Virus record (IMG/VR): IMGVR_UViG_3300047283_000054
Strand: one strand, 5' to 3'
DNA: 64,000 nt
Origin: a virus
Lineage: Duplodnaviria; Caudoviricetes
A program made the position numbers and the translations under genes. The notes below the pieces were generated by a model that had not been told where the DNA came from, ran no database searches, and saw nothing but the letters and a program-made list of their open reading frames with translations. Positions 14,033-61,293 of this stretch are shown here, piece after piece (the first letter of the stretch is position 1; every line of letters starts with the position of its first letter).

Positions 14033-14932
14033 TTAGTTGTATTGAAAGTTAAATCCAAGAATTTTTAGATACTCGTTTATCTGTTTGATTTGTTTAGGGC
14101 CGCAATTTTTTAAAAATCTACGGTGGAAGCCAAATATCTTTACTCTAGCATTCATCGTAATTAGTTTATCAACTGAAAAATCTTCATCTAAAAATAAATC
14201 AAAACTAGAAGGGGAACATGAAATATGTTTATTTTTTATATGATTGTAATCAACTATTGTGTTTTTTCCCAGGTCAATTTTATCATATGCTAAAAAAGAA
14301 TATAAAATAAACTCACTGATACCATAATTTATCTTACGACCATCAATGAATAAAAGTTTATAGAAAATGTCGTCTAGTATATTAGAATTTTTTAATACTT
14401 CGTATTCTATCTTAAACGGTGTTTCTGGTTTTAAAAAATATAAAGGTGTTACCTTTAAATCCAGCATATTTTTATACTGTGCTATAGCATCTACCCAACT
14501 TTTATCATTTCCATTTTTATATGGTTGATAGTCAAGACAATCGTCGGGAGGTTCGTTCACAAATTCTATAATGCCGGAGCCTATATAGCCATCCCATTCA
14601 TCAATGTTAGATGGCTTTATGAAGAAATTTTTACTATCTAAAATTAAATAATCATCTTTAACTAATTTTGCTATTGCAAGTTTACATACTTGCTGTGTAA
14701 AATGACCATATACATTTTCTTTATTTTCAAACAATTGTTGCTGTGGTATAATTCTTAACTCATGTTTATTATAAAATGGATTTAATAGTTCTTCCCAAGC
14801 TCCTATGTCGGTTATTTTCTCATTTATGATAACCCAGTGGCAACAGGGTTCTAAAAATTTGCTAATACTTTCAGCCTGTAATACCATTAAATGCCGTTCT
14901 TTATTACAAGTTACGGTTACTAAATGTTTCAC
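14033..14932 (-). CDS. Putative glycosyltransferase-like protein (DUF6492-like)
   Basis: GHFTQQVCKL, YLILDSKNFFIKP and SEFILY motifs. Confidence 0.5.
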   Translation of the reverse strand: MKHLVTVTCNKERHLMVLQAESISKFLEPCCHWVIINEKITDIGAWEELLNPFYNKHELRIIPQQQLFENKENVYGHFTQQVCKLAIAKLVKDDYLILDSKNFFIKPSNIDEWDGYIGSGIIEFVNEPPDDCLDYQPYKNGNDKSWVDAIAQYKNMLDLKVTPLYFLKPETPFKIEYEVLKNSNILDDIFYKLLFIDGRKINYGISEFILYSFLAYDKIDLGKNTIVDYNHIKNKHISCSPSSFDLFLDEDFSVDKLITMNARVKIFGFHRRFLKNCGPKQIKQINEYLKILGFNFQYN

Positions 14933-15252
14933 ACTCTAAAACTTTCTCCGCATCCGCATTTGTCACGTTCATTTGGGTTTTGAAATTCAAATCCCTCATT
15001 TAACCCATTACGTACATAATCAATGGTCATACCTTGAACGTATGCACAACTCTTTGGGTCAACATATAAATCGCAACCATTACAGTTTACTTTAATATCA
15101 TGTTCTATCGGACTATCAACATATTCAAGCACGTAAGCGAGACCTGAGCATCCTGTAGTTTTTACACCTATACGAATACCTAAGCCTTTGCCCCGTTTTT
15201 GTATTGTTTGTTGTATTTTGTTTGATGCTTTGTCAGTTATGCTTATTATCAT
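14929..15252 (-). CDS. iscA: Iron-sulfur cluster assembly accessory protein IscA (HesB family)
   Basis: GVKTTGCSGLAY and NPNERDKCGCGESF signature. Confidence 0.95.
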   Translation of the reverse strand: MIISITDKASNKIQQTIQKRGKGLGIRIGVKTTGCSGLAYVLEYVDSPIEHDIKVNCNGCDLYVDPKSCAYVQGMTIDYVRNGLNEGFEFQNPNERDKCGCGESFRV

Positions 15253-21158: not shown

Positions 21159-22601
21159 TTATTTCTTTAAACTGTTTAACATTGCTTTTAGCTTAGAACC
21201 CTGTACATCTGCTACAATACGCTTGTTTTCCGGCTCTAATATCTCTCCTGTAGCTTGGTCAATAATAGGCTCAGTAGACTGTAACGTACTTTGCGGCTTC
21301 AATTGACTCATAATCTGATTTGCGCTAGGTTTAGGAGAATAGCTATTCTCATTGTCAGGATCGCTGTCACTAATACGCATAGTTTCAATATCATAGTCTA
21401 AATCAATCTTTTGTCCTACACCCGTACTACTACGACTTTTCATACACTGAATCTGATACTTGCCTCGTTCACGCATACTACGACTTGTGAAGATACCAAA
21501 CACGTTATCAGCAGTATTAATCTTACTGATACCACCTGCAATGTGACTATGGTCAAACTCAATTTCATCAACAGCACTACGATTCAACTGTGATGCAGTT
21601 ACCATTAAGATGCCCATCTCTTTTGCAAGATTACGCAATTCTTCAGCAACATACTTGTCTTTAATAAACTGGTCGTTAGGATTAACTTTAACAGAGACAG
21701 GCATAACCAAGTCTAAGTAATCAACCATAACAAAGTCAATCTTAATACCTGTTTGAATCTGTACTTCTTTTAAATAAGCACGAATATCATTTACATTACT
21801 CTGTGCAGGTAGTGCTTTAACACGATATTGACCAGACTTCTTACCAACCATTTTAACTTTCAAACTAGTTGTATCAATATCTTTACGAATTGATTTAGTT
21901 CCCATTTGTGTTAACATCGCATCAGTTCGTAAACTTGTAAGTTCTTCACTAAGTTCAAGTGTGATATAGACACCACTCATTCCTTGTTGCAACCAGTTCA
22001 ACGCAATGTTCATCATAACAAGTGATTTACCTGAACCTGAGCCACCTGCAAAGATGTTCAATTCACCTCGACTGAAGCCACCATATAAGATACGATCCAT
22101 TTGCGGCCAGCCTGTTGAAACTTGTCCACCACTATTAAAGTATTTGTTAATACGAGCTGCCGGATCATAAAAATAATCTGTACCCATATCTTTCTGCAAA
22201 CTAATTTGTACTGCGTCTTTGATTAGTTTTTCAACAGGATCAAAATCACCCTTCTCTAACAAGTCAGCGGCTTTAAGAATAGCTCGTTCTAGTTCTTGTC
22301 GTTTAGTAAACGCTTCAAACTCATCCAAGAACCAATCAAATTGATTAGGACTAAAGTTAGGAATGATATCAATATCTTGTCCAGTGATTGCCTTAATCTG
22401 TGTGGGATCGGGCAAGATACTATATTTTGTAGTATGTTCTTTATATAAGTTTGCAACTGGCCTTAATGACCTGTCAAAGTTTTCACTGTTTAATATGTTC
22501 ATAACTCTGGTATAGAGTTCTGCCTCAGTAATCATTATACGCAAAAATATCTTTTGCACTTCAACACTATAATCTTTTTTATTTTCGTAATCTTTTTTCA
22601 A
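21159..22601 (-). CDS. Replicative DnaB-like helicase (T4 gp41-like)
   Basis: AGGSGSGKS Walker A, ITLELSE, MVDYLD, TASQLNR and KSR motifs. Confidence 0.92.
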   Translation of the reverse strand: MKKDYENKKDYSVEVQKIFLRIMITEAELYTRVMNILNSENFDRSLRPVANLYKEHTTKYSILPDPTQIKAITGQDIDIIPNFSPNQFDWFLDEFEAFTKRQELERAILKAADLLEKGDFDPVEKLIKDAVQISLQKDMGTDYFYDPAARINKYFNSGGQVSTGWPQMDRILYGGFSRGELNIFAGGSGSGKSLVMMNIALNWLQQGMSGVYITLELSEELTSLRTDAMLTQMGTKSIRKDIDTTSLKVKMVGKKSGQYRVKALPAQSNVNDIRAYLKEVQIQTGIKIDFVMVDYLDLVMPVSVKVNPNDQFIKDKYVAEELRNLAKEMGILMVTASQLNRSAVDEIEFDHSHIAGGISKINTADNVFGIFTSRSMRERGKYQIQCMKSRSSTGVGQKIDLDYDIETMRISDSDPDNENSYSPKPSANQIMSQLKPQSTLQSTEPIIDQATGEILEPENKRIVADVQGSKLKAMLNSLKK

Positions 22602-23559
22602 TTTTCTTCCTCTGTAGTTCTATTTTGATTTTACTAGTTGTCGCACTACTCAATATACTGAGTAATGTAGGCAACTTACCATACTTAACTACCGCGTCAT
22701 TTACATCTTTAACATCGTCTTCCCAATTAGGAATACTTACACTATAGCCCAACTCTAATGCTCTATCACAAGTTTCTAAACCTGTACTATCTCTATCGGG
22801 AATAAAGATAATACGTTTATTAAGTTGTGCTAGAATCTGTGCTTGGTCATCGTTGATTGTATTATGTGTTAACGCACAAGCATTTAAGCTTAATGCGTCA
22901 AAGATACCTTCAACTAACAAACATACTTCCCAATCGGGTTTCTGAAAGTCATAACCAAATACATAGCCTGGTTGTTGCTCGTTAATATACTTTGGGATTT
23001 TGTTATCTAAGAATCTGCTCGTATGCCCAACAATCTTATTGTTATAAGTGTAGGGTATAATGATTCTGTTTGACTGTCTGCCAGTGTCATTAGGTGTTAC
23101 TAAGAACGGGTAGTCATTATAATTTATCGACCTCGCAGACAGATAATCAACGTATACTTTGTGTAATGAGTTATTAATATCGATTAACTCACCTTCAGGC
23201 AATGTATGTTCTTTAAATTTTATTTTTGATTTTTGTTTTTTAAGATTAGTAAAGTCTAACAAATCTTTATGTTGTAAACTTTCTAAACTCCACTTTTGTA
23301 TTTGAGTAGGATCAATACCTGACCACAACAATATATTTTTTGTATTTTGGGTAATACTTTTACCCAACATAAACCCACACTTAAACCCACAATTAAAGCA
23401 ATGATATGACCAATTGTTTTGCCCATCAAATTTAATACCACCACGACCACGTGTATCAGTTTTATGCCCGCGACGGCTACAGCAGATAGCATTAAAACTA
23501 TGCCATCCGCCGTGCGTGAGTTTTTTCTTTCCGGGAATTACTGATAGGATATCAAACAT
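22579..23559 (-). CDS. DNA primase (T4 gp61-like)
   Basis: Zn-ribbon YHCFNCG, RIIIP, TOPRIM VEGIFDA, PDRD and KDVND. Confidence 0.9.
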   Translation of the reverse strand: MFDILSVIPGKKKLTHGGWHSFNAICCSRRGHKTDTRGRGGIKFDGQNNWSYHCFNCGFKCGFMLGKSITQNTKNILLWSGIDPTQIQKWSLESLQHKDLLDFTNLKKQKSKIKFKEHTLPEGELIDINNSLHKVYVDYLSARSINYNDYPFLVTPNDTGRQSNRIIIPYTYNNKIVGHTSRFLDNKIPKYINEQQPGYVFGYDFQKPDWEVCLLVEGIFDALSLNACALTHNTINDDQAQILAQLNKRIIFIPDRDSTGLETCDRALELGYSVSIPNWEDDVKDVNDAVVKYGKLPTLLSILSSATTSKIKIELQRKKIEKRLRK

Positions 23560-23607
23560 CTATGTAGTATAACACAACTGTCATAGATAAACAACAGTTT
23601 AGGTTGA

Positions 23608-24375
23608 TTATCTTGACAATATATTAGTTACTGCACCGTTATTGCTTTCAAATTGCATTCTAATATAAGGGTGATAACCTTGAACAACATAACCTTTTGT
23701 ATCAGTTTCAGCGGTATAAGTATCGGTCAATATAGGATACCAATCACCATCTACAATCGTAGAACCTTCAACCACAACGTTGCCATAGTAATCACTATAT
23801 TGTGCTTGTAGTGTTAGTATTGGGCTATCATTGGTATCTATTACGCTTGTGTAATACGTGATATTGCTTTCACCGTTACCATCAGGGTGTAAGTTAGGGA
23901 AGTCTTGTCCAGTTGGAATACTTACTGGCATTGATGGAACAAAGCTAGGTAATACACTATTAACGATATTCATATCACCACGTGCGCCTGCATTTTGGTC
24001 TACGAACACAGGGTAATCAAATTCTCCTACAGGAATCTCCAATGAATAATAACATTTCTGTGCATCAAGACTTGCTAAGTCAGCAGAATTTAAAAGTAAT
24101 GCGGCAATACCAGTTGCAGGTAATTGCAGAGTTAGTGCCTTTTGTAATAGGACCACATTACCTTCATAATTAATAATCCTACAGACTATTGATTTCCCTG
24201 TAATATCTACGGGTTTTTGTTCTTGGTTTAAGAACTGAAATTGAATTTGGTTATCTACACCCTTATTAAGTGTGAGTGGCTTGGCATACTGAGGCATATA
24301 GCTCCTTGGGGAAAATCCTGATAAAAGTATAACGATTTGTCTTTGTGTATAGACGAAAACTTGAGTTGAGTACAT
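23608..24375 (-). CDS. Hypothetical structural protein (BppU-like N-terminal domain)
   Basis: KGVDNQIQFQFLN...KPVDITGK; Met at 24375 lies 5 nt after GATAAATA. Confidence 0.5.
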   Translation of the reverse strand: MYSTQVFVYTQRQIVILLSGFSPRSYMPQYAKPLTLNKGVDNQIQFQFLNQEQKPVDITGKSIVCRIINYEGNVVLLQKALTLQLPATGIAALLLNSADLASLDAQKCYYSLEIPVGEFDYPVFVDQNAGARGDMNIVNSVLPSFVPSMPVSIPTGQDFPNLHPDGNGESNITYYTSVIDTNDSPILTLQAQYSDYYGNVVVEGSTIVDGDWYPILTDTYTAETDTKGYVVQGYHPYIRMQFESNNGAVTNILSR

Positions 24376-24379
24376 ACTG

Positions 24380-24422
24380 ATATTTATCAAAATATATTGC
24401 CATATCGTCCGATGATAAATAT
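24380..24422. promoter_or_regulatory. Divergent pair of late promoters
   Basis: ATATTTATCA (24380-24389) and TGATAAATAT (24413-24422) back to back between divergent genes. Confidence 0.65.
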
Positions 24423-24441
24423 TTCGGTCAATATAATAACA

Positions 24442-24822
24442 ATGATATCAAACGAATTTTTCAATAAACTAACAACAAATCACCCGTTCATAACTATATG
24501 TTCATACGCCAACCAAGATTATGTTGGAATAGTTCAAAATAGGGATGAGATAGTCACCACTATATACGATTACGGGTCTATAATGGAGTCTAGTATTAGA
24601 GAAAAATTCCTAGAATTAGGTGATATTTGGTGGTGGGAAAGTAACAGACTTATCCCAATCAACCTCTTTTTAAAAGAAGAATGGTCTATCTTTAAACCAT
24701 ATCTCAGAACCTTCAATAATAAAAGTTTAACAGTAATACACGGCCCTACGTGTAGTATGTCTGAACTAAACAAACGTAGAAGTAAACGCCGTAGTATTAC
24801 ACTAGTAAAAAGAATAGTTTAA
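24442..24822 (+). CDS. Hypothetical phage protein
   Basis: ORF downstream of the late promoter; WWWESNR motif. Confidence 0.6.
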   Translation: MISNEFFNKLTTNHPFITICSYANQDYVGIVQNRDEIVTTIYDYGSIMESSIREKFLELGDIWWWESNRLIPINLFLKEEWSIFKPYLRTFNNKSLTVIHGPTCSMSELNKRRSKRRSITLVKRIV

Positions 24823-25391
24823 CTCTGTTCTTCTAACAAATTCATATGTACCACTACTAAATGTGCATATGCAACTGCGTGACTCTTTTTAAAACTGTAC
24901 CCGTCAGTATTCTTATCCCAAATTGATTTAGATATATCAGCCCAAGATTGACCTATCAAATGTCGTTTAGCAGGGCGAATTAATGCTAAGAACATTGCTA
25001 ATCTAGGAATGCTATCAACTGAGCTGGGCATCTTCTGTAGTGACTGATAATGATTACCCAAGTGAATCAATTTCTCTACAAATTCTCTTTTATTTAAGTT
25101 ACCCCAATTAGGCTCACGCATCAATGTTGCTAAATGTAGCTCATCACGAACCTGCGAATAAACGTGAACATTCAATAAATCTAGTTTGAAATATCCTCGT
25201 TGTTCTGCTTCAACATAGTCAATAGCTGCCATATCATTTACTGGATCATATGGTATGTCAGTAATATATACACCAGTAGCGTGTTTACGCATTGGATTAG
25301 CATTACGCATAGAGGCAGCTGTATGTTTTATAAGTTGTAATAACTTATCTCTATCACCAAAGTCAATGTCAATGTCTGAATCAATTCTCAT
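24819..25391 (-). CDS. Minimal DNA polymerase III alpha (DnaE)-like catalytic core
   Basis: DIDIDF, KHATGVYI, GYFKLDLLN, LALIRP and GYSFKKSHAVAYA motifs, in DnaE order, within 190 aa. Confidence 0.8.
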   Translation of the reverse strand: MRIDSDIDIDFGDRDKLLQLIKHTAASMRNANPMRKHATGVYITDIPYDPVNDMAAIDYVEAEQRGYFKLDLLNVHVYSQVRDELHLATLMREPNWGNLNKREFVEKLIHLGNHYQSLQKMPSSVDSIPRLAMFLALIRPAKRHLIGQSWADISKSIWDKNTDGYSFKKSHAVAYAHLVVVHMNLLEEQS

Positions 25392-25942
25392 CTTGGGGGA
25401 GGTACCAGTTCTGCTTTAATTAATTTAGTATACGCTTTTTGCACAACAATAGCTTGTCTTTCGGCATCTTCAACTGCCTTGTGACTAGTTACGTGACCAC
25501 CGTCTTTAAGACTTACTCCAGTTATTTCATACAAGGTACGTGTATCTCTAACGGTGTAGAAAGGCCAGGGGATTCGCATTTCGAGATTTCTCCAGGCCGA
25601 CTCTGCCACAACCACATCGAATGATGCACCATTACTCCAAACAGCACGGCGATTCCAACAAAACTTATAAAGTATTTCCATACACTCTCTAAATGGAATT
25701 CTGCCATTTTCTCCCATAGCCTCTTCAAGTGCTTCAGGGCTTTGCTCACTCCACCATCGTAATGTATCTTCATTGATACTCCTATTATAAATTTCTGTTT
25801 GTTCTTCGATTGTAGGTCGCAACTCCAATCGCTCAATAACCCCGCTGCCTTTAGGATCAAATCTTACTGCACCAATAGTTAGTATAACACAATCAGGACT
25901 TGTGTCAAGCGTTTCCATATCAATCATTACATCGTTTGCCAT
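25388..25942 (-). CDS. DEDDh 3'-5' exonuclease (DexA/Rv2179c-like)
   Basis: MIDMETL, WSNGASFD, RDTRT and HKAVEDA motifs. Confidence 0.85.
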   Translation of the reverse strand: MANDVMIDMETLDTSPDCVILTIGAVRFDPKGSGVIERLELRPTIEEQTEIYNRSINEDTLRWWSEQSPEALEEAMGENGRIPFRECMEILYKFCWNRRAVWSNGASFDVVVAESAWRNLEMRIPWPFYTVRDTRTLYEITGVSLKDGGHVTSHKAVEDAERQAIVVQKAYTKLIKAELVPPPR

Positions 25943-26778
25943 AATAATGCCGCTCCTATTACACCTGCACTGTCACCCAATTTTGCTTTAAAGATAGGTG
26001 TACTAAATTCATCATTGAATATAATCTTTTTCACACGTTCAATACCTCGGGTGTATAAGATATCATTATTGCTTACTCCACCACCAATTACAATACAATC
26101 TGGGTCTAACACTTGAACTAAATTAGCAATGGCTAATCCAAACTGTTCTAAGAAAGATTCTTGTATCTCCGAAATTTGTAAATATTCTTTTGTGGATATT
26201 TTTTTATTTGTAATATTAAATGCCCATTTACCTATCCCCGAGCCGCTTAACCAAGTTTCTACACATCCGATTCTACCGCATCGACACATTATATTATTAC
26301 TTGTATCTAGTGTTGTATGTCCCCATTCAGTGCTTATATTATGAAATCCCTTATGTAATACATTATTAATTACGATTCCTCCACCTACCCCTGTACCCAA
26401 TATCATTCCAAATACAGTATTATATCCTTTGCCTGCACCCAACAGTGCTTCTGCTAAAGCAAAACATTGGCTATCGTTTGCAATTTGTATCTTACGATTT
26501 AATTTAGTTTCCAATATACCTACAAAATCCGTATCATTTAAAAATTCTATGCTGGAATTTTTCATTAAACCTGTTCTATTGCTTATAGAACCCGGCATAC
26601 ATACTCCTAATGTATGTTCTTTTGTATTAGTATATGATGATGCTTTATTATAAAGAAATTCTATTTCTTCATATACAGATTCTGTGAGAAGGCGTTCTCT
26701 AAATAATACTTCATTAGTAGGTGATAATACACAACACTCAATTTTTGTTTTACCAATATCAACCCCAATCTTATTCAT
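25927..26778 (-). CDS. ROK-family sugar kinase
   Basis: GVDIGKTKI, NDSQCFALAE, GTGVGGG, EWGH and CRCGRIGCVE Zn motif. Confidence 0.9.
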   Translation of the reverse strand: MNKIGVDIGKTKIECCVLSPTNEVLFRERLLTESVYEEIEFLYNKASSYTNTKEHTLGVCMPGSISNRTGLMKNSSIEFLNDTDFVGILETKLNRKIQIANDSQCFALAEALLGAGKGYNTVFGMILGTGVGGGIVINNVLHKGFHNISTEWGHTTLDTSNNIMCRCGRIGCVETWLSGSGIGKWAFNITNKKISTKEYLQISEIQESFLEQFGLAIANLVQVLDPDCIVIGGGVSNNDILYTRGIERVKKIIFNDEFSTPIFKAKLGDSAGVIGAALLWQTM

Positions 26779-27128
26779 AATTGTAATGTTTTCCAAATAT
26801 ATTTCTTCTCTAAGTAATCTTGTAACTTCAATGCTTCTATTTCACTATTAAAAGCTACACCTTTAATCTCATACATATCTTCTAGGTATCTAGCGTAATC
26901 ACCATTGATATCTTGTGCCCAAGTATGCAATGTTATCCACATAATATCCATTTCGCTAAGATATCCAGGCGTTATTCCAATACCAACTTCGTAACTACCG
27001 ATATCTTCAAATAGTACATCTAACAGTTTTTTCTTAATATCAAACGTTTGAATGTTACCCCATTTAGGCCATGATACTAGAAATTTACCTTTTTGTAAAT
27101 ATGTTATGGGAAAGGGAGTAGTGTTCAT
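26775..27128 (-). CDS. Small hypothetical protein (divergent member of the small-gene array)
   Basis: Coupled ORF; AFNSEIEALKL resembles the array motif. Confidence 0.55.
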   Translation of the reverse strand: MNTTPFPITYLQKGKFLVSWPKWGNIQTFDIKKKLLDVLFEDIGSYEVGIGITPGYLSEMDIMWITLHTWAQDINGDYARYLEDMYEIKGVAFNSEIEALKLQDYLEKKYIWKTLQL

Positions 27129-28163: not shown

Positions 28164-28358
28164 TCAACCCCATCTTAATTCAAAATGAACAGCGTCACGT
28201 TCATCCTTGAAATAAAAATCCATATAATCTACTGTAGGATCTGTAGTAAATTTATTGCCCGGTAATCCAAATTGTTCTATCGCCCAAGCACAGGTTTCAT
28301 TCCAGTCTATAATGTCTCCCTTTTTCCAAGGTATACGAACTCTAGTACCCGCCTGCAT
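28164..28358 (-). CDS. Small hypothetical protein, array member
   Basis: Ends FYFKDERDAVHFELRWG. Confidence 0.7.
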   Translation of the reverse strand: MQAGTRVRIPWKKGDIIDWNETCAWAIEQFGLPGNKFTTDPTVDYMDFYFKDERDAVHFELRWG

Positions 28359-29064
28359 TCAATAACTCCTTAACTTGTTTCACATTCTCTGGTTCACGAT
28401 TAAACTTAATCTTCCATAGTTCTGGATTGATATAGTCAATAACCATCTTAACCTGTGATTCATTTAAACCATCTAAGAACTTCACACCACTACTACTCTG
28501 ATATAACATCCAAGGACTAAGTTTCCCATTGGTAATACTATGACATATCTTGTTAGGATTACCATAACACAAATAGTCTTTAGGTACAATGCCTTCGTTC
28601 TCTGCCAAATCCATAGTAGTTTGGACACTACGTGCAATAGCATCTAACGGATCTTCAATACGCAGATACTCAATTAAATACTTTGTATAGACGCTATCAC
28701 TAGCCCAAGTATCAATTTTGATGTTATTTTTTAACAACCAATCTACATATCTACTGATATTAATTGCATTGATATTTGCACAATGAGTTCCAAACTTTAC
28801 AAAGGCAGTATAGTAAGCACTACGAATAAATTCTTCATAGGTTTTATTCTTTTTAGTTGAAGTATTCTTTTTATAAAACTGTAGCCAAGATTGAAAGCCT
28901 ATGCGATTGCCTTGCATATCTTTATTCATCCAACGTTGTTTATTTTCGCATAGGTGTTTAGCCATAGTAGATTCACGTAGGAACTCTCTATTGCAAAAAT
29001 CACAACCATACTTGATTGTCTTATCAGTTGCCTCTGTCTTTTTCGTATTGAGTGATATCTTCAT
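28342..29064 (-). CDS. Hypothetical protein with N-terminal zinc-finger-like motif
   Basis: YGCDFCNREFLRESTMAKHLC (C2H-C). Confidence 0.6.
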   Translation of the reverse strand: MKISLNTKKTEATDKTIKYGCDFCNREFLRESTMAKHLCENKQRWMNKDMQGNRIGFQSWLQFYKKNTSTKKNKTYEEFIRSAYYTAFVKFGTHCANINAINISRYVDWLLKNNIKIDTWASDSVYTKYLIEYLRIEDPLDAIARSVQTTMDLAENEGIVPKDYLCYGNPNKICHSITNGKLSPWMLYQSSSGVKFLDGLNESQVKMVIDYINPELWKIKFNREPENVKQVKELLNAGGY

Positions 29065-29617
29065 CTGTAACCGTTTGGCTTAATACTTCTATGTCTGCTA
29101 TTTTTAAATGGGGGTATATTTCTGCAAGATGCATTTTCTTTCTCTGCTCTTGTACAAATGTTTTTGAATATTCTGTTAAATCTTCACTATTTGCCTTAGG
29201 ATAAATCTTTGTAAAGTATTCTTTGATTTCTTTTACTTGTGCAGGTTCTTTTAACAAACTTACACGTTCTTTAATCTGAGGTAACCATTGATGATATTGT
29301 TTACCTTTACCAGGACTTGCCGCACACATCATATACCATTGTAGTTTAGGATGCTTTGATACATTCTCATTAAAGAAGTATTTGTTAGCGTGATATTCTG
29401 TACTCATCGCATAATACCCTGCAATATCACTTGACCCCTTTACATAACTCAACCATTTGATTAACATAAACGGGACAAACTTACGTTGCTGTTCAGGAGT
29501 AAGTCTATCGTAATAATCATAATCTTTCTTGTCTAATGCCGCAATAGCTTCAAACAAGTTAAAGTCTTGATTCTCTAATTTTTCATCTTGTGGTATTGCT
29601 ATTTTCTTTGTTGCCAT
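29024..29617 (-). CDS. Clamp-loader small subunit (T4 gp62-like)
   Basis: FVPFMLIKWLS, ANKYFF, HPKLQW and KQYHQWL resemble the gp62 pattern. Confidence 0.6.
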   Translation of the reverse strand: MATKKIAIPQDEKLENQDFNLFEAIAALDKKDYDYYDRLTPEQQRKFVPFMLIKWLSYVKGSSDIAGYYAMSTEYHANKYFFNENVSKHPKLQWYMMCAASPGKGKQYHQWLPQIKERVSLLKEPAQVKEIKEYFTKIYPKANSEDLTEYSKTFVQEQRKKMHLAEIYPHLKIADIEVLSQTVTDEDITQYEKDRGN

Positions 29618-30117
29618 TAGAATGCCTGACTATAATCTACAATCTCACAGTTACGACTAATCTCTTTTACAAAATACACACATCTTGGCTTAGGTCCATC
29701 ATCTAACGGTACACATAAGAATTGTCCGTTCTTTAATCGAGGTGCATACCAAGTTACATCGTGATATATATCTACAATCTCAATCGGTACAAAACTAGGA
29801 CTGAATGAACTAAGTGGATTAAACTCAAACGCATTGAAGCCTCTGTCATTAATACTTGTAAGAGGCAATGTTTCTAAGTCTCCGTGTTCTTGTTCACCAA
29901 TTAGTATTTGCCAATCAATAGGCATCTTAATCGTACTGTTACCAATCTTCAATACAAGTGCAGGACTACTGAAGGATTCCAAAAAGATTAACGGGATGTA
30001 ATGATAGTCTACGTTTTGTGGATTGCTGTTATCTAGGATAGCAAAACGCAAGTCATCAATCTCTTCGGGAAGTGTTTCTAAGTTATAGAATTCGTTGTCT
30101 AGGGTTAATATTCGCAT
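29617..30117 (-). CDS. Hypothetical phage protein
   Basis: ORF with its own TTGACA-17-TATAAT promoter (30123-30151). Confidence 0.7.
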   Translation of the reverse strand: MRILTLDNEFYNLETLPEEIDDLRFAILDNSNPQNVDYHYIPLIFLESFSSPALVLKIGNSTIKMPIDWQILIGEQEHGDLETLPLTSINDRGFNAFEFNPLSSFSPSFVPIEIVDIYHDVTWYAPRLKNGQFLCVPLDDGPKPRCVYFVKEISRNCEIVDYSQAF

Positions 30118-34586: not shown

Positions 34587-35885
34587 ATGAACAGAATATT
34601 AGTAGCATTTGATTATTGGGGCCCGAATTATCCACTAAGGAATAATCAAAACTTTAATAAACCATTTTCAGAGTTAATAGTTGATGATACCAGTTGTGAG
34701 TTTTTTAATAAGATACCAAGATATGAATGTGTACCATCATCCATTTTAAAAGATAAAGATTTATTTATTTACCCTATAATAATAGGATTCGGTCAATATG
34801 AATGGCCGTATAATACTGATATTGATATATTATCATCAACCTCAATGTCAATTAATGTAGCTAATAGCATACGTAGTAGAAATGGATTTTTATTTTTAGA
34901 TTTAGGTAACGAGTCGGCAATGACAGATTCTTTATTAGATAAGGTGCATTCATATATGTTAAGTAAAGATATTCCATTAAGGAAGATTATATTTCAAACC
35001 GGAAATAGTAATGGAAGAGAAATATATAAAAACTATTGTTTAAAAAAAGGAATTATTTTTGAAAAAGCAATGAATATATCTTCTATTGAATACTTTGAAT
35101 GGCATACAAGTAAACACTACAATGTAGGTATAAATAATCAAGGGTTTGTACCTTTACCAAAAAATGTAGATTATAGTAAAATTGAAAAAACATTCTTATG
35201 TTTAAATAACAGACAGCGACAACATAGAAAAAATCTGTTTATACTCTGGAATTTAAATGATTTAATTAAAGATAGTTTTTACACAATGCCCAATAAATCC
35301 GGATATACATTTGATACTAAAACATATAGTCTTAATGATTATATAGATACTGATTTAATGCACCGAGTTGGGGTAACACCTGAATACATTAATGAAATAG
35401 AAAAAACATTACCACTTACACTTGATGACCCTAGTAGACCGGTAAATTTATTATCTTTGTTTGTATCGATTGGTACGTATTATCAAAGTAGTTTAATTAG
35501 TATAGTCACTGAAACTAACTTTGAGGGGTCTGAGGTGTCTGATATTTTTAATACAGAAAAGATATTTAAACCAATGATTCATAGACACCCATTTATTCTG
35601 GTGGGTCCATATAAAACATTAGAGAAATTAAGAGAACTTGGTTACAAAACATTTAGTGAGTTTTGGGATGAGAGTTACGATGATATTGAAGATCCTACTG
35701 AACGATTATTAAAAATAGTTGAATTATGTAAATCCATAAATGAATGGAGTGACCTAGAAAAAAAGAGGTTTTTCTATAAATCTATGCTTATTACTAACCA
35801 CAATCATAAACTCTTAACGGAATGTTATCCCAATAACATGCGTAAAAACTTTTGGCATGAATTCAAGGATATAAACTATGAATAG
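34587..35885 (+). CDS. Putative glycosyltransferase-like protein, paralogue 1
   Basis: FLCLNNRQRQHR, ISIVTET, TEKIFKP and FWDESYD motifs. Confidence 0.55.
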   Translation: MNRILVAFDYWGPNYPLRNNQNFNKPFSELIVDDTSCEFFNKIPRYECVPSSILKDKDLFIYPIIIGFGQYEWPYNTDIDILSSTSMSINVANSIRSRNGFLFLDLGNESAMTDSLLDKVHSYMLSKDIPLRKIIFQTGNSNGREIYKNYCLKKGIIFEKAMNISSIEYFEWHTSKHYNVGINNQGFVPLPKNVDYSKIEKTFLCLNNRQRQHRKNLFILWNLNDLIKDSFYTMPNKSGYTFDTKTYSLNDYIDTDLMHRVGVTPEYINEIEKTLPLTLDDPSRPVNLLSLFVSIGTYYQSSLISIVTETNFEGSEVSDIFNTEKIFKPMIHRHPFILVGPYKTLEKLRELGYKTFSEFWDESYDDIEDPTERLLKIVELCKSINEWSDLEKKRFFYKSMLITNHNHKLLTECYPNNMRKNFWHEFKDINYE

Positions 35886-37188
35886 AATATTAGTAGCTTT
35901 TGATTATTTTGCACCTAATTATCCAATACTTAATAATCAAAATTTTAATCAACCATTAACTAAACTATCAATAGATAATGGGGTATACGAGTTTTTTAAA
36001 TCATTAAATGGTTTTGAATGCGTACCATCATTATCATTAAAAGAAATGGATTATTTTGTATATCCAATTCGTTTAGGATTAAAGCCTGATGATTGGATAA
36101 ATCGTCCAGAAATAGATTTATTGGCTACCACTAATATGTCGATTCATACATTTAATGGAATAAGAGGTAGAAATGGATTTTTACTTCTTGATTTGGGACA
36201 TGAATCTATATTAAATGATAAAATTATAGATACTATCCACGAGTATTTAAAACTAAAAGATATTCCTTTAAGAAAGGTAATATTACAAACCGGTAGTGCA
36301 AATGGTGAAAAATACTATAAAGAATATTGTTTTAAAAAACAAATTAGTAAAGGAATCAATATATGTTGTATAGAATATTTTGAATGGATGAGTAGTAGAT
36401 TAGTAACAGAAAATAAAAAAATTAATAATAAAATTCTTCCAAAAAATGTAGACTATAGTAAAATTGAAAAAACATTTTTATGCCTAAATAGAGTACATCG
36501 ATGGCATCGTGTTAATTTATTTGTGTTATGGAATATCAATAATCTAATGGAAGATTCTTATTATACAATGGATAACAAATCCAATTTTCCTGTAGGTGAG
36601 AATTATGATAATGATATTTGGAGAAGAACTATTGATGTTAAATTAGTTAATAAATTAGGATTAACTGAAGAAGTCATAGATAAAATACAAGCCACATTAC
36701 CTTTAAAAATAGATGAGTTTTTGGAACCGGATGTTATGGCTGAATTATTTAGTACCATAGATCCGTATTATCAAAGTAGTTTAATTAGTGTGGTAACTGA
36801 AACCAATTTTCAAAACAACGATATTTTTAATACAGAAAAGATATTTAAACCAATGATTCATAGACACCCATTTATTCTAGTAGGTGCATATAAAACTTTA
36901 GAATATTTAAAAAATATGGGATATAAAACATTCAGCGATTTTTGGGATGAATCATATGATGATATTGAAGATCCATTTGAAAGATTATTAAAAATAGTAG
37001 AAATTTGTAAAGATATACAGAGTTGGGATGATGTTAAAAGAAAAAAATTTTTCTATAAGTCAATGGTTATAACTACTCACAATTATGATTTATTAACTTC
37101 TCAATATCCTGACAATATGCGTAAAAACTTTTGGCATAGATTAAGAGATTATGCTGTATTTCAACGGGATAAAGATAAATCTATTTAA
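35878..37188 (+). CDS. Putative glycosyltransferase-like protein, paralogue 2
   Basis: Colinear with the preceding gene from MNRILVAFDY to NMRKNFWH. Confidence 0.55.
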   Translation: MNRILVAFDYFAPNYPILNNQNFNQPLTKLSIDNGVYEFFKSLNGFECVPSLSLKEMDYFVYPIRLGLKPDDWINRPEIDLLATTNMSIHTFNGIRGRNGFLLLDLGHESILNDKIIDTIHEYLKLKDIPLRKVILQTGSANGEKYYKEYCFKKQISKGINICCIEYFEWMSSRLVTENKKINNKILPKNVDYSKIEKTFLCLNRVHRWHRVNLFVLWNINNLMEDSYYTMDNKSNFPVGENYDNDIWRRTIDVKLVNKLGLTEEVIDKIQATLPLKIDEFLEPDVMAELFSTIDPYYQSSLISVVTETNFQNNDIFNTEKIFKPMIHRHPFILVGAYKTLEYLKNMGYKTFSDFWDESYDDIEDPFERLLKIVEICKDIQSWDDVKRKKFFYKSMVITTHNYDLLTSQYPDNMRKNFWHRLRDYAVFQRDKDKSI

Positions 37189-38210
37189 ATAAATCCCTTG
37201 ATGACCTGACTATAATCATTAATAGCATATTGTATTTTGTTATTAGTTGAGTTAGGTCTGCAAGGTTTACAAAAACTTGTTATAAAGTTATTATAAATTT
37301 CTTTGTGCTTATCACTACACCATATATCTCTAAAATCATCATCTATCCAAGAGCCTAATTTAGTATCTTCTCGACCCTTGTACTCACAGCATAGATAAAT
37401 GTTTCCGTCAGCACAAAAACTAGGAAACAAAAACATCTGGTGGCATCGTCTGTATTCTCTTGCATCATATCTACCCAATGATACATCTGCCTTGATACCA
37501 TAGAATTCGCTTGCAGTTTTGATTCTGTTTGCGACTTCATCATTCATTATGAAACTATGTCCATTCAAAACCATAGGGCGTAAATGCACTGCACGTGCTT
37601 TCACATCTTTTGCATATTCAAATATGCTGTTGATTTCTATTTGACTTGTGTTCTCCGGCATTAACAATGCTTTTACATCTAATGGAACACCCCTACTACC
37701 TAACTCTTTTGCAGTCTCTTTAACTCTATCAAATGGACAAGCTGACATTTTACTATTACGTATTAACTCATACGTATTAGGATTACCACTATCAATATCA
37801 AGTCCTACATAAGCCATGCGCTTTAGCTTATCAGTATTGATAGTTAATAACTTATGTAACTTTGTACCATTTGTATTCATTGCGGCAACATAACCCTTGT
37901 CAATTACATCCTCTAGTAAATCTTCATAGCCTGGAAGTAATGTAGGTTCACCTCCACCACTAAAGATTACATTACTTAATGTACCTATGACGTTACTGTC
38001 ATGTTGTCTCCACGTATGTAGTCTGTCAATGAGTTTGCTATACTGTTCCACAGACTGGTACACCGGCAAGTCATTTCTGAATTGCTCGGTGTTGCAGTAA
38101 TAGCAGGCTTGATTGCAGATATTTGTAGTGTCTAAGTCTATCTGCCAGGGTAGTATCTTACCAGGTATGTTACCTTGTATCCAACGTGAAATTAATTGAT
38201 ATTGATCCAT
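37185..38210 (-). CDS. Radical SAM protein with C-terminal SPASM/twitch domain
   Basis: CNQACYYC, SGGGEP, TNG, DGNIYLCC...CKPC. Confidence 0.9.
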   Translation of the reverse strand: MDQYQLISRWIQGNIPGKILPWQIDLDTTNICNQACYYCNTEQFRNDLPVYQSVEQYSKLIDRLHTWRQHDSNVIGTLSNVIFSGGGEPTLLPGYEDLLEDVIDKGYVAAMNTNGTKLHKLLTINTDKLKRMAYVGLDIDSGNPNTYELIRNSKMSACPFDRVKETAKELGSRGVPLDVKALLMPENTSQIEINSIFEYAKDVKARAVHLRPMVLNGHSFIMNDEVANRIKTASEFYGIKADVSLGRYDAREYRRCHQMFLFPSFCADGNIYLCCEYKGREDTKLGSWIDDDFRDIWCSDKHKEIYNNFITSFCKPCRPNSTNNKIQYAINDYSQVIKGFI

Positions 38211-50558: not shown

Positions 50559-51797
50559 TCAGGTTAATCGCAAATTGTTTAATTCAACGTTGACATTTTT
50601 AAGATAAAAATCTCTATTTTTATCAAACACATCGTTCATTTGAAAGAACCTAGACAGATTATTAGTATAGTCAACATCGGTGTGACATTTAGTTTTTATG
50701 ACCTGCATCTTTTTAAAAAAACTAGGGGCTTGAAATTCAGTGTTTTTAATCATCCATTCTTCTATTTTAAACCAGCAATCTTTTTTATAGTTCAACGGTA
50801 AATTTATACAGTCCAAATGATTAGGGAGTTGCAAATTTATAGGTAATATACTAACTTTTGTAGTTCCTGCAATTCTATTAAAATTTTCAAAATAGTCAAA
50901 TAATTCTACAAGTTTATTCAGATTCGTAATCTGTATGACAGGAGATGGTTTTAATGTAATATTATCAAAATTCTCTACTAGATAATGAAAATTCTTATCT
51001 ATTTGTTTCCAATTGCTAGGATAACGTATATATTCTTGCAACGACCCCACACCGTCAATACTTGCATAAAAAGTTACGTTTTCAAATTCTTTAATGAGAG
51101 AATAGAATTTTTGATTGAGATTAGTCATGTTAGAATTTATAACTAATCTCATATGTTTACTACGTCCACTAGACACTAACTTATCTAAAATTTCATAATT
51201 TTTTTTAACAATAGTAGGTTCACCACCTGTAATATACATCTGTAATAGATTCTCTAACTGCGTATTGATATTATCTTCAAATATAAAAGTTTGATACCAA
51301 TCATTTATAGTTGTCGTATCTATAGGTTCGTAGAAGGTATTTAATTTAGTATGTTTCAATTCATCTAGTTCTTTTGCTAGTTGACTTGAATATAATGCAT
51401 TACAACTTTTACAAGCTAGATTACATAAGTTTCCAAAGCGCAAATCAATATCCAAGATTCTAGCATCGATAATAGAACCCTGCGCTATTTTTTCTTGTGT
51501 GATTATATTATCAAGCCATCGTTCATTATACATTTGTCGTTTACTTGATTCATCACCAAATTCTTCACTTTGATAACATCGATTACATCCTGATACCTTC
51601 TCACCTGCTAACATCTTTTCTCGTATGTTTACATAGTCAGGTGAGTTAATTATATCTGTTATATTGTCATAACCTAAATTAAATTTATCACCGTTATTTT
51701 TTTTAATTGGTTCTGTTGATATACAGCATGGTTTAATGCTACCATCAGAATCAGCACTTATGTTAATCCAAGGCATTACACAAAAAGTTTTATTCAC
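50559..51797 (-). CDS. Radical SAM protein with N-terminal twitch/SPASM domain
   Basis: FCVMPW...KPCC...GCNRC; CNLACKSC; TGGEP; ASIDG. Confidence 0.9.
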   Translation of the reverse strand: MNKTFCVMPWINISADSDGSIKPCCISTEPIKKNNGDKFNLGYDNITDIINSPDYVNIREKMLAGEKVSGCNRCYQSEEFGDESSKRQMYNERWLDNIITQEKIAQGSIIDARILDIDLRFGNLCNLACKSCNALYSSQLAKELDELKHTKLNTFYEPIDTTTINDWYQTFIFEDNINTQLENLLQMYITGGEPTIVKKNYEILDKLVSSGRSKHMRLVINSNMTNLNQKFYSLIKEFENVTFYASIDGVGSLQEYIRYPSNWKQIDKNFHYLVENFDNITLKPSPVIQITNLNKLVELFDYFENFNRIAGTTKVSILPINLQLPNHLDCINLPLNYKKDCWFKIEEWMIKNTEFQAPSFFKKMQVIKTKCHTDVDYTNNLSRFFQMNDVFDKNRDFYLKNVNVELNNLRLT

Positions 51798-52768
51798 GGT
51801 GCAACCTTATACGTTCCTAGATTAATAGCACAATGACATTCTCTGTATGGACAACTAATAGGATCTTTTTCAAAGCTAAATGTGTCTGTGTTTAAATCTG
51901 CCATCATTGTTCCGGCACCACATATACCTCTATATACTTTATCATATTCTATTCTAGCATTATCTACACCAATATTGCATTTCCAATTTTTGAATAGATT
52001 TCTCCTATCCTTCATTATTTTCTGAGCAGTTTCAATTTCTTCAATACTTCCATCACTATATGTGAATTTTAATTGAGAATTTAATTGCATATCAACGGGT
52101 AATTCAGTTTTGCATTTATCTTCATACTTGTTACCATAATACAATGTTTGTTTTCGTAGCTTAGCCAATTGTTCCGGTGTATATAGTTCGTAAATATCAT
52201 ATGCAACGATAGTCATTGCTTTACTATAAATCAATGCTCCTGTATTCTCAACAAAATAATCTACTGCATCAAATGCTTCTTCTACGGTTTTAATAACATG
52301 TGTTACCAAACATACAGTTTTAATAGGTTCGTTATGGAATAAATTTAATACTTTTGAAATGTGTTCTCTATCAGCTTTCTGTTCAGTATGAAAAGTTACA
52401 TATAAATGATCCAATGACTTTGATTCTTTGAATTCTTCCCACCATCTTAATGTGCGTGTTCCGTTGGTCACTATCCCAGTATATACACCTTTTGATTTAA
52501 TATATTTAAAAAGATCAATTAGTTTTGGATACAATGTAGGTTCGCCTCCTGTAAACTGTATCCATAATGGTTGTCCATTTGAAGCTGAAACCATCTTATC
52601 TATATACATCTTGTATGTGTCCAAGTCTCTCCATCTATCACTACCGTTTTTATGTTCTTCTCCGCAAAAACTACAATCATAGTTACAAACATTATGTAGT
52701 TTCCACTCAATGAATTTAAATTTAGGCGTAACTAATTTTTCTAATTTAATTGGAAATATCTTCATCAA
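51794..52768 (-). CDS. Radical SAM protein
   Basis: CNYDCSFC, FTGGEPT, TNG; C-terminal Cys cluster. Confidence 0.9.
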   Translation of the reverse strand: MMKIFPIKLEKLVTPKFKFIEWKLHNVCNYDCSFCGEEHKNGSDRWRDLDTYKMYIDKMVSASNGQPLWIQFTGGEPTLYPKLIDLFKYIKSKGVYTGIVTNGTRTLRWWEEFKESKSLDHLYVTFHTEQKADREHISKVLNLFHNEPIKTVCLVTHVIKTVEEAFDAVDYFVENTGALIYSKAMTIVAYDIYELYTPEQLAKLRKQTLYYGNKYEDKCKTELPVDMQLNSQLKFTYSDGSIEEIETAQKIMKDRRNLFKNWKCNIGVDNARIEYDKVYRGICGAGTMMADLNTDTFSFEKDPISCPYRECHCAINLGTYKVAP

Positions 52769-53830
52769 CTATTTATAAAACCCTACAACCTTATCAGCAA
52801 TATATTGAACTTCAATATCGGTTAATTCTGGGTACATAGGTAGACTTAGTGCGCCCCTAGACAACATTACACTAGTACTTAACAAATCAGGTCTACTAAT
52901 GTTTCTATCTTGTGCGGTTGGTAAATCACCTAACACATATTCATAATGAATCTTACTATCGATTCCATCAGTTAGTAAATGCGTGTGTAAGCTATTACGA
53001 TCAGCCATATATACTACAAATTTCTGATGTGCGTGTGGGTCTACTGTATCTGATAAACAATGTAATGGTAGTTCTCTAAATTTATCACACCAATACTTTG
53101 CTATCTCACCTCTACGATTTTGCCACTCATCAATATACTTTGCACGAATCATAATCTGGGCACAATCTTGTTCGCTCATCTTACTATTAGTTCCCACATC
53201 ATGGAATGCAGGTTTGTTGTTGTCTCTATATGTTGCGGCAAACAAATATAATTGTTCATCATTGGTAACGATAGCACCACCGTTACCTGAGCTTGGTAAA
53301 TTCTTTGTAGGGTCAAAGCTGATTGACATACCACTACCTACATCACCGGCGGCAACTAACCAATGTTGTGCTCCATCTACAATAACAGCGTTGGCACTAG
53401 CATATCCTGCAATAGGCCAAGGTTTGCGACCACCATATCCCATTACACAAGTGTACCCTTTCAGACTATTCTCTACATCAATGACACCATTCTTATCAGT
53501 GTCAACTAACTCTACATCCCATCCTGCAGTCAGTAATGAGTTTAGTGTTGCTGGATAAGTTAAATTAGGAATACGAATCTTAGGAGTATTTTTAAATGTG
53601 TCTAAGTGTTTCTTTTTCTTATATCTTGCAATAATCTCTAATGCTTGTGTGCCACTATGTACTGTTACCGCATACTTTGTTTTAGTACGATGTTTAAGCC
53701 ATTCTTCAAACGAGCGGGTATAATGACCACCCACAAGTTGTCCGTCTTTAAGGGCACGGTGAGTTGCATCAAGCAACTCTTCACCGATGTTCTTATACTG
53801 TCTTGCTAGACCGAAGTGAGGGATTTGCAT
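52769..53830 (-). CDS. DegT/DnrJ/EryC1/StrS PLP-dependent sugar aminotransferase
   Basis: SGTQAL, DGAQ, SFDPTKNL (PLP Lys) and LSLPMYPEL motifs. Confidence 0.9.
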   Translation of the reverse strand: MQIPHFGLARQYKNIGEELLDATHRALKDGQLVGGHYTRSFEEWLKHRTKTKYAVTVHSGTQALEIIARYKKKKHLDTFKNTPKIRIPNLTYPATLNSLLTAGWDVELVDTDKNGVIDVENSLKGYTCVMGYGGRKPWPIAGYASANAVIVDGAQHWLVAAGDVGSGMSISFDPTKNLPSSGNGGAIVTNDEQLYLFAATYRDNNKPAFHDVGTNSKMSEQDCAQIMIRAKYIDEWQNRRGEIAKYWCDKFRELPLHCLSDTVDPHAHQKFVVYMADRNSLHTHLLTDGIDSKIHYEYVLGDLPTAQDRNISRPDLLSTSVMLSRGALSLPMYPELTDIEVQYIADKVVGFYK

Positions 53831-54002
53831 TTTTTGCCCAAGCTATATATCCGCCATTAGCAACAGACCATGGGCAATACTGTTCCCATAGTGCTTTTGA
53901 TTGTTCAGTATTTTCTTTCATCAACTTGTCTACATTGACTCTGGATTTATATCCGTCTAGAGTCCAATCATGTGCTTTTAGTACAGTTTCTAATTCATTC
54001 AT
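53793..54002 (-). CDS. Small hypothetical protein
   Basis: Coupled ORF; LKAHDW...LWEQYCP. Confidence 0.55.
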   Translation of the reverse strand: MNELETVLKAHDWTLDGYKSRVNVDKLMKENTEQSKALWEQYCPWSVANGGYIAWAKNANPSLRSSKTV

Positions 54003-54967
54003 TTTATTTTATCTTGCCAGTAACTGGATGTTCTAAGCCAATCATAATATTTTTCAAAGCCTTCTTCTACGTCTACCTTAGGATCATATCCAAAGTCTCT
54101 ACGAGCGGCATCGATGTTTAATGCACCACGACTTGGGAAGTCAGCGTCTTTATCTTTAACTATTAATCGCCCTCCACCGGCTAACTTCAATGCTAGTTGT
54201 GCGGCTTCTAACAATGTACGACTGTGACTCTTAGTTATATTATATGTCTTGTTCTCTGTATTATCGCTTAATGCTGCCGCAACAATACCATCTGCGGCGT
54301 CATCAACATAAGTAAAGTCTAATGTTTCATTAGCACCATTAACATTCAATGTGCCTCCACGCATTGCTGTTAACATAAACTTGGCAATCACACGATCCTC
54401 AACATCTAACGGACCATAGACAGCACTAGGGCGAATGATAGTATGACTAAAGCATTTACGGCGACTATAATCTTCTACTAATCGTTCTCCTGCTAGTTTC
54501 ATAATGCCATACTGACCTTGAGGTTTACAGTTATAATCTTCTGTTACATCATCAGTAAAGTCACCATATACCATTGAACTACTGATATAAACAAATTTCT
54601 TTATTTCATGTTTCTTACTAACTTCACACAAATTCAATAGACCTTCCATCATTGTTTTTGCTCCCATAGTTGGATTAGCATTAACAACTTTTTGTCTTGG
54701 GAAGCTAGCCATATGAATTACAATATCAAACTTGTATCGACCAAATAACCAATCAATGCTTTCGCTAGAAATGTCAATAGCGTGAATACTGCCGGGTTGA
54801 ATTTTCTTCAACCGTTCTGTCATTAGATAGTCAATTTCATCTTGCGGAATGATGCCATAGTTAGTTCGTATATCGGTAATAGCAACACGGTGCCCCATAC
54901 GTTGTAATCTATCTACTACGTTATGTCCAATAAGTCCTAATCCGCCTGTAACTAATATATTACTCAT
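53999..54967 (-). CDS. NAD-dependent NDP-sugar epimerase/dehydratase
   Basis: TGGLGLIG, SSSMVYG, YGIMK (YxxxK) and DFTYVDD motifs. Confidence 0.92.
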   Translation of the reverse strand: MSNILVTGGLGLIGHNVVDRLQRMGHRVAITDIRTNYGIIPQDEIDYLMTERLKKIQPGSIHAIDISSESIDWLFGRYKFDIVIHMASFPRQKVVNANPTMGAKTMMEGLLNLCEVSKKHEIKKFVYISSSMVYGDFTDDVTEDYNCKPQGQYGIMKLAGERLVEDYSRRKCFSHTIIRPSAVYGPLDVEDRVIAKFMLTAMRGGTLNVNGANETLDFTYVDDAADGIVAAALSDNTENKTYNITKSHSRTLLEAAQLALKLAGGGRLIVKDKDADFPSRGALNIDAARRDFGYDPKVDVEEGFEKYYDWLRTSSYWQDKIK

Positions 54968-59671: not shown

Positions 59672-59768
59672 CTTTTATCATTCCTAAAAATCTAATTAAG
59701 GCAATAACAAAAAGCCAACATAAGCCTAATATAAGTATTGAAATTATAATATAGTCAAGCCAACTCAT
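59658..59768 (-). CDS. 36-aa single-pass membrane peptide (below the ORF-track cutoff)
   Basis: ATG overlaps the VWA gene stop (TAATG); MSWLDYIIISILILGLCWLFVIALIRFLGMIKDVDD. Confidence 0.55.
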   Translation of the reverse strand: MSWLDYIIISILILGLCWLFVIALIRFLGMIKDVDD

Positions 59769-61045: not shown

Positions 61046-61071
61046 ATTGGTCCTTTACTGTTTATGTGTAT

Positions 61072-61100
61072 ATTATAGCAGAATTTCTATTTATTGTCAA
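61072..61100 (-). promoter_or_regulatory. Early sigma70-type promoter (TTGACAATAAAT class)
   Basis: TTGACA-17-TATAAT. Confidence 0.85.
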
Positions 61101-61249
61101 ATAGACAAGCCACGATATCCTGCATCAAATGCAATCCTAGCGTAATCCTGTGCGGACTCAATAGCATACAAGGCCATTCCTTGGTCCTTTGATAAACCTT
61201 TTGCTCGGGCACTTTGCCCCAATGCGTAAAAATATTTCTTACCTGACAT
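61097..61249 (-). CDS. 50-aa hypothetical protein (below the ORF-track cutoff)
   Basis: SD AAGGA; MSGKKYFYALGQSARAKGLSKDQGMALYAIESAQDYARIAFDAGYRGLSI. Confidence 0.6.
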   Translation of the reverse strand: MSGKKYFYALGQSARAKGLSKDQGMALYAIESAQDYARIAFDAGYRGLSI

Positions 61250-61260
61250 TATATTCCTTT

Positions 61261-61287
61261 AAAAAAGGGTGAGCATTACACTCACCC
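61261..61287 (-). terminator. Intrinsic terminator after the MoxR-like ATPase
   Basis: Minus strand GGGTGAG-TGTAATG-CTCACCC-TTTTTT. Confidence 0.8.
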
Positions 61288-61293
61288 ATTAAA

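Follow-up and report, generated by a model that had tools for sequence, protein, structure and literature searches.

A probable C-terminal subunit of a split minimal family C DNA polymerase in an uncultured freshwater phage lineage

The stretch of viral DNA analyzed here (64,000 nucleotides, referred to as the window) carries an open reading frame of only 190 codons whose product displays the motifs of DnaE, the alpha subunit of bacterial DNA polymerase III, and which adjoins a gene for a DEDDh exonuclease. This raises the question of what so small a piece of a replicase is and with which partners, if any, it would act. The original prediction took it to be a miniaturized DnaE core coupled to the exonuclease, either a second nucleotidyltransferase in its own right or one part of a split polymerase. 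The reading that we favor is that the protein is the C subunit of a minimal family C polymerase made of two chains, which would serve as a short-patch accessory polymerase, and taken as a whole, this proposal has, from our analysis, a probability of about 0.6. Its narrower core, that the protein is the C-terminal subunit of the two-chain minimal family C polymerase of group 2.2 jumbo phages, is close to certain. The two genes at issue are as follows.

24819..25391, minus strand: C-terminal unit of a split minimal DNA polymerase III alpha, running from ATG to TAA and encoding 190 aa
25388..25942, minus strand: DEDDh 3'-5' exonuclease, 184 aa, Rv2179c-like/T4 DexA-like (Pfam PF16473, E 1e-31)

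Likeness of the 190-residue protein to DnaE

The five motifs quoted in the original prediction are all present in this frame, which has an intact start and stop, and they begin at residues 6, 37, 69, 137, and 167, in the order found in DnaE. Among the PHROG profiles, phrog_11778 ("DNA polymerase," 197 positions) covers the whole protein (E 1.5e-59), while Pfam gave no matches and PDB searches with the single sequence and with a shallow alignment returned nothing. A family HMM built from 90 selected diverse homologs, family members alone, scored 26.7 bits against E. coli DnaE, compared with at most 2.5 bits for 500 shuffles, and the nine PDB sequence matches of the 90-homolog profile were all to Pol III alpha. 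The AF2 model derived from the 90-homolog alignment reached a pLDDT of 94.5, and its seven best structural matches were family C (PolC/DnaE) chains, with 183 to 187 residues aligned at an rmsd of 3.1 to 4.1 Å (Z 6.2 to 9.5), covering residues 397 to 780 of the E. coli protein; the first match after these seven had a Z of 4.0. Viral structure matches were likewise family C polymerases. Foldseek with the same model placed Pol III alpha among the top 12 matches at E >0.001, and with an earlier model from 31 sequences, in which residues 1 to 59 were poor, the Foldseek search was not significant.

Alignment equates D6, D8, and D71 with D401, D403, and D555 of E. coli DnaE, K69 with K553, H37 with H511, R139-P140 with R639-P640, Y175 with Y764, and H171 with H760, the steric gate of E. 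coli Pol III alpha (PMC11253446). The claim that all three catalytic aspartates are kept was borne out, as D6, D8, and D71, along with K69 and P140, are invariant in the 90 diverse homologs, while the figure is 89 of the 90 for D10, H37, R139, and H171 and 79 for Y175. Between and beyond these residues, the protein is drastically shortened. The 110 residues of the thumb that lie between D401 and H511 in E. coli are represented by 31 here, the 119-residue fingers segment with R709 and R710 by 30, and the 404 residues that follow the start of the FxKSH motif by 23. Everything beyond about E. coli residue 780 is missing, and neither a PHP domain nor clamp-binding, HhH, or OB domains are attached. 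The absence of the PHP, HhH, and OB regions and of most of the thumb had been recognized from the outset, but that list was incomplete, as the N-terminal part of the palm (about E. coli residues 320 to 392, including the GRGS motif) and a fingers segment of ~90 residues are absent as well. A full-length DnaE or PolC replicase, a single chain of ~1000 aa or more, is ruled out by these motif spacings and by the score of the frame against TIGR00594, the model for full-length DnaE (10.7, against a cut-off of 434).

Given how small a part of DnaE is covered, the protein could be imagined to be a decaying or misassembled piece of a full-length dnaE, a reading that is refuted by the data from relatives and from independent assemblies and to which we leave a negligible probability. 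At least 7,997 protein clusters have a similar length, the 90 selected homologs range from 179 to 231 residues, and a short stand-alone frame, rather than a full-length dnaE, occupies all 84 loci examined. A search for longer homologs of the window protein found none, at a sensitivity low enough for the same search to have missed the real fusions described below. The dN/dS ratios measured against the window gene lie between 0.04 and 0.15, and the median over 732 pairs is 0.14, far below 1, which, at the level of sequence, means that the C unit is under purifying selection. The description of the gene as miniaturized rather than decayed is therefore upheld by its conserved aspartates, similar lengths, and low dN/dS. 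The frame is also no assembly artifact, because contigs from two other sequencing runs span it completely without gaps, one with 0 differences across positions 23500-26164 and the other, from a 2016 lake sample, with 21 differences across 23500-25616. DNA of the window was detected in freshwater metagenomes, and metatranscriptome contigs of related strains overlap parts of the polymerase gene, such contigs being no measure of transcription.

The N-terminal unit and the family B polymerase

A split of this kind has been described previously. According to the available text of Iyer, Anantharaman, Krishnan, Burroughs, and Aravind (2021, PMC7824862), the RaK2/PA5oct-like jumbo phages of group 2.2 encode a minimal Pol III alpha divided over two distant genes, one for an N-terminal NTP-binding protein and the other for a C-terminal Mg2+- and template-binding protein, which coexists with a family B polymerase and for which a role on one strand or in repair was proposed. 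The cultured relatives of the window protein are jumbo phages of precisely this kind (RaK2-, PA5oct-, and Atu_ph07-like); it is 41 to 49% identical to the homologs of Atu_ph07, PA5oct/Paride, RaK2, and PBECO4, and the orthologs in cultured group 2.2 phages occupy the same gene block. The split family, having been described from sequence in 2021, is hence not new, and the high novelty implied by the original prediction falls away.

The GRGS motif is absent from all frames of the window. In 13 of 17 related records, a separate gene for a GRGS-bearing protein of ~170 aa was found, which belongs to PHROG 11127; the 13 include the two complete IMG/VR records and each of the four cultured phages. 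The family HMMs align this N unit with E. coli DnaE residues 320-392 and the C unit with residues 538-641 and 739-769, and the C unit starts five residues ahead of the equivalent of D401. The two genes are 31 to 44 kb apart in most records and 183 kb apart in Atu_ph07, and tallied genus by genus across the phage collection, the two units are almost equally numerous. In Ralstonia phage RsoM2USA (MG752970.1, 133294-138585), the N gene lies ~4.7 kb upstream of the C gene on the same strand. A 200-aa gene abutting the C unit of a distant relative was considered as a further N unit and turned out to encode a zinc-finger protein.

The most informative relative is a complete 352-kb genome syntenic with the window (G001), in which the N gene is 43 kb from the C gene. 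Over the stretch compared, this genome is collinear with the window, and its N gene lies about 20 kb beyond the homolog of the left end of the window, so the N gene of the window virus is expected about 18 kb past that end. A contig 99.95% identical to the window extends only ~6.8 kb beyond it, still in synteny, and does not reach the N gene. The same complete genome encodes, at about 204 kb and far outside the stretch that matches the window, a family B polymerase with intact motifs, so that both genes whose presence was to be checked, a family B polymerase and a separate gene for the N-terminal part of DnaE, are found together in one relative. A family B polymerase is present in every complete record searched, and none of the window frames inspected by eye resembles one. 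In Atu_ph07 and Paride, the family B match is spread over two open frames, which suggests that these genes are perhaps split or interrupted. The view of the locus as a T4-like replication block with a family B enzyme as the main polymerase is thus supported by the relatives, but the gp62 label given to one neighbor could not be confirmed. Of the alternatives in the original prediction, the one that treated the protein as one part of a split polymerase proved to be the correct one, with the other part on a separate, distant gene in relatives; a complete nucleotidyltransferase formed by the 190-aa protein on its own is not supported, because the GRGS part that binds the triphosphate is on another gene.

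The two units also occur naturally as one chain of 375 to 376 aa, in three protein clusters (P0167, P0271, and P0272) and on four contigs from ENA and Logan.

L111:1066-2193: natural N+C fusion gene
L192:519-1649: natural N+C fusion gene
L193:1827-2957: natural N+C fusion gene
L194:1292-2422: natural N+C fusion gene

In these fusions, the N part precedes the C part, as in DnaE, the spacing from GRGS to DxD is 43 residues compared with 40 in E. coli, and a single match to the DnaE model crosses the junction. In a quick unrooted tree, for which a more thorough search is unfinished, the three fusions form one clade (support 100) within a supported group (96) of otherwise unfused proteins, and this nesting hints that the fusion may be secondary.

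When the C unit of the window and the N unit of its complete relative were submitted together to structure prediction, the complex scored 0.91, while the best of three controls scored 0.00; the mark used for this score was met by 58 of 80 solved complexes and by 2 of 110 mismatched pairs. Contacts agreed from run to run at ≥96%, the pLDDT of the partner was ≥90, and in the predicted complex, D10 of the C unit contacts W133 and G134 beside the GRGS motif, with the DxD strand lying against those residues. The halves of a split gene can score in this way through their likeness to solved Pol III alpha structures, and the score therefore speaks for compatibility rather than binding. Together, the fusions and the model lead us to infer strongly that the two chains would pair non-covalently and rebuild a single Pol-beta-type active site.

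Gene neighborhood and the DEDDh exonuclease

The other genes of the block that bear on the argument are listed here.

21159-22601, minus strand: gp41/DnaB helicase, conserved downstream replication gene
22579-23559, minus strand: gp61-type primase, conserved downstream replication gene
24397..24822, plus strand: antisense neighbor (phrog_11637), tail-to-tail with the C unit, with a 4-base overlap
25927-26796, minus strand: ROK-family gene (Pfam E 6.5e-63), in the variable upstream block
28342..29064, minus strand: conserved zinc-finger protein of 240 aa (C2H2-type pattern; phrog_11058)
29024-29617, minus strand: 197-aa gene (phrog_11758)
29617-30117, minus strand: highly conserved 166-aa gene (phrog_11279), 96% identical to the complete relative and 48% to Paride

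The stable neighbors of the C gene are the zinc-finger gene upstream and, downstream, the antisense gene, a 260-aa gene, the primase, and the helicase, and the position of the C gene upstream of the primase and helicase is conserved. The antisense gene occurs at 83 of 84 loci and also beside two of the fusion genes, and it has no match in Pfam, NCBIfam, or the atlas. The zinc-finger gene immediately precedes the C gene in Paride and at two distant metagenomic loci, and in the window, a variable block of ~3 kb lies between the two; its product is a candidate accessory subunit. The profiles tried gave no function for phrog_11279 and phrog_11758, the two genes flanked by those for the UvsW-like helicase and the zinc-finger protein. 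The ROK gene was found at just 7 of 80 viral loci, many of these loci being truncated, and is skipped in one contig from an RNA run.

Elsewhere in the window, positions 59768-62394 on the minus strand hold the gene for a MoxR-like ATPase (phrog_1297) and, after it, one for a protein of 425 aa (phrog_1314) that contains an HExxH motif. The two fit the peptidase-vWA/MoxR pair listed for group 2.2 by Iyer et al. (PMC7824862). In translations of 34587-38210, 50559-54967, 886-1476, and 14929-15252 inspected by eye, we saw radical-SAM-like genes, sugar-nucleotide enzymes, two tandem paralogs (432 and 436 aa), a superoxide-dismutase-like gene, and an IscA-like iron-sulfur assembly gene.

The gene immediately upstream of the C unit encodes an exonuclease with a complete DEDDh set (D8, E10, D109, H154, and D159), and its stop codon overlaps the polymerase start as ATGA at 25388-25391, as originally reported. 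This arrangement invites the reading that the two proteins work together as polymerase and dedicated proofreader in the manner of alpha and epsilon, all the more as, of 41 non-redundant close loci with ≥2 kb of upstream sequence, 26 have the exonuclease directly next to the C gene and 11 more have it nearby, and as T4 DexA shares a process, intron homing, with the exonuclease domain of gp43 (PMC12153337). In those 11 loci, however, other genes intervene, the exonuclease is missing from the remaining 4, and it is not beside the C gene in any of Atu_ph07, Paride, RaK2, and PBECO4, a member of the family lying ~40 kb away in the last two and being undetected in the first two. Furthermore, the best PDB sequence match of the exonuclease, and its closest solved relative, is T4 DexA (8KEL, E 3.6e-4) rather than epsilon, and the PHP and thumb surfaces to which epsilon binds are missing from the polymerase. 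The exonuclease is a neighbor typical of the freshwater clade and no universal partner, and since it is DexA-like and non-adjacent in cultured relatives, the proofreader suggested in the original prediction is unsupported and, in our estimation, very improbable. It is most likely an independent DexA-like enzyme, which may have a looser functional link with the polymerase. The 5'-terminal part of the exonuclease gene contains, at 25908-25881 on the minus strand, an 11-of-12 match to a sigma-70-like promoter with a TG extension, which faces the polymerase gene; promoter-like sites are not enriched in the region (20, compared with 27 in shuffles).

Possible role of the split enzyme and its relation to known systems

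In E. coli DnaE, contacts with the incoming dNTP are reported for R390, R709, and R710 (PMC4374717). From sequence alignment, the segment with R709 and R710 is deleted from the C unit, and in an ungapped alignment, 58 of 59 N units have Glu at the position of R390, as do four cultured phages. This near-invariant Glu sits two or three residues from the C terminus of the N protein (L096:1216-1719 of the complete relative and 58 other N units). With none of the three arginines kept, normal dNTP binding is not guaranteed. Conserved lysines are found at K142 (82 of 90) and K168 (84 of 90), where E. coli has P642 and N757, and these may compensate for the lost arginines.

By sequence and model, the C unit carries the three metal-binding aspartates, the lysine at E. 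coli position 553, the sugar-gate histidine, and a shortened fingers domain, and the portion of the palm with GRGS is on the separate N unit of ~170 aa. In the mechanism that we propose, the DxD strand of the former would pack non-covalently on the GRGS strand of the latter to give one Pol-beta-type active site. Because the thumb, long fingers, clamp-binding, HhH, and OB parts are missing, probably only a few dNTPs would be added per binding event, and the enzyme would be a distributive accessory polymerase of low processivity that assists the family B replicase. It might extend the primers made by the neighboring primase-helicase before handing them off, or it might fill short gaps in recombination or repair. 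For the former there is a bacterial precedent in B. subtilis, where DnaE extends primers before PolC takes over (PMC5627055, PMC3664799). We consider these two roles about equally probable. T4-type family B polymerases extend RNA primers without help, which counts against the necessity of a primer extender. A literature search for biochemical or genetic tests of the split enzyme found none.

The same heterodimer might instead be a template-independent or otherwise specialized nucleotidyltransferase that performs no templated synthesis on gaps or primers but serves in end tailing, the unblocking of 3' ends by pyrophosphorolysis, the use of modified nucleotides, or counter-defense. The near-invariant Glu in place of R390, the loss of the R709/R710 segment and thumb, the conserved basic residues K142 and K168, and the fact that replication is already covered by a family B polymerase are all consistent with such a function, whereas the residues for sugar selection and the primer end are retained (H171 in 89 of 90, Y175 in 79 of 90, and K69 in 90 of 90), and the gene is kept within the core replication block across distant phages, which would be unlike the patchy distribution of counter-defense genes. 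On balance, we regard this alternative as unlikely, if the most serious of those considered, and we give slightly less credence still to the joint claim that the rebuilt nucleotide pocket, with Arg390 changed to Glu, the index-finger arginines deleted, and new conserved lysines, no longer serves ordinary templated synthesis but catalyzes a different reaction, for example untemplated addition, the unblocking of primer ends, or modified-nucleotide use.

A more ambitious role, as a processive co-replicase of one strand for which other phage proteins supply the thumb, clamp contact, and long fingers, is more doubtful again. The helpers could be the product of the conserved zinc-finger gene, which abuts the C gene in Paride and at two distant loci, or that of the antisense neighbor, and an RFC-like clamp-loader gene, recognized from translations, lies a few genes downstream of the N gene in relatives. 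Against this, no neighbor matches any DnaE domain model, the natural fusions end at the same C-terminal point without an additional domain, and the complete relative has an intact family B polymerase.

The finding as such is a rediscovery, to which our analysis adds the natural fusions, the switch from R390 to Glu, and the unlinking of the exonuclease; the fusions, the predicted heterodimer, and the Arg390-to-Glu change with the Arg709/710 deletion do not appear in the available text of Iyer et al. 2021. The phages with this two-piece enzyme already own a family B replicase, and some of them are cultured (Paride, PA5oct, and RaK2). If active, the enzyme would represent a family C polymerase core of very small size, from which one could learn what the chemistry can do without among the parts of the bacterial replicase. 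For activity assays, the natural fusions of 375 aa offer candidates already in a single chain, and the R390-to-Glu position would be the first residue to examine.

Among known systems, the closest is the minimal Pol III alpha that group 2.2 phages encode in two parts (PMC7824862), whose C unit has the same size, motifs, and gene block as the window protein; the relatives also share the N unit on a distant gene and the family B polymerase. The window lineage differs from the phages described in being uncultured and from freshwater and in having a DexA-like exonuclease, a ROK gene, and small frames upstream. T4 DexA (PDB 8KEL; PMC12153337) is a DEDDh 3'-5' exonuclease like the neighbor in the window, at 227 aa compared with 184 aa, and the similarity is weak and confined to residues 4-112. 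Intein-split DnaE, of the cyanobacterial type and of the phage "fractured genes" (PMC2677866), is likewise made from two distant genes. The phage units described here leave no room for an intein half, as the N unit ends at the equivalent of ERFL and only five residues precede the first Asp in the C unit, and unlike the intein-split enzyme, they are miniaturized, and their association would be non-covalent. With bacterial Pol III alpha (DnaE/PolC), the window protein shares the Pol-beta-type palm, the equivalents of D401/D403/D555, K553, H511, R639-P640, H760, and Y764, and a structural match over the whole length of the model (Z up to 9.5). The bacterial enzyme has 1160 aa in one chain, compared with about 360 aa in two chains here, and the phage version does without the PHP, thumb, R709/R710 finger, clamp-binding, HhH, and OB parts and has Glu in place of R390.
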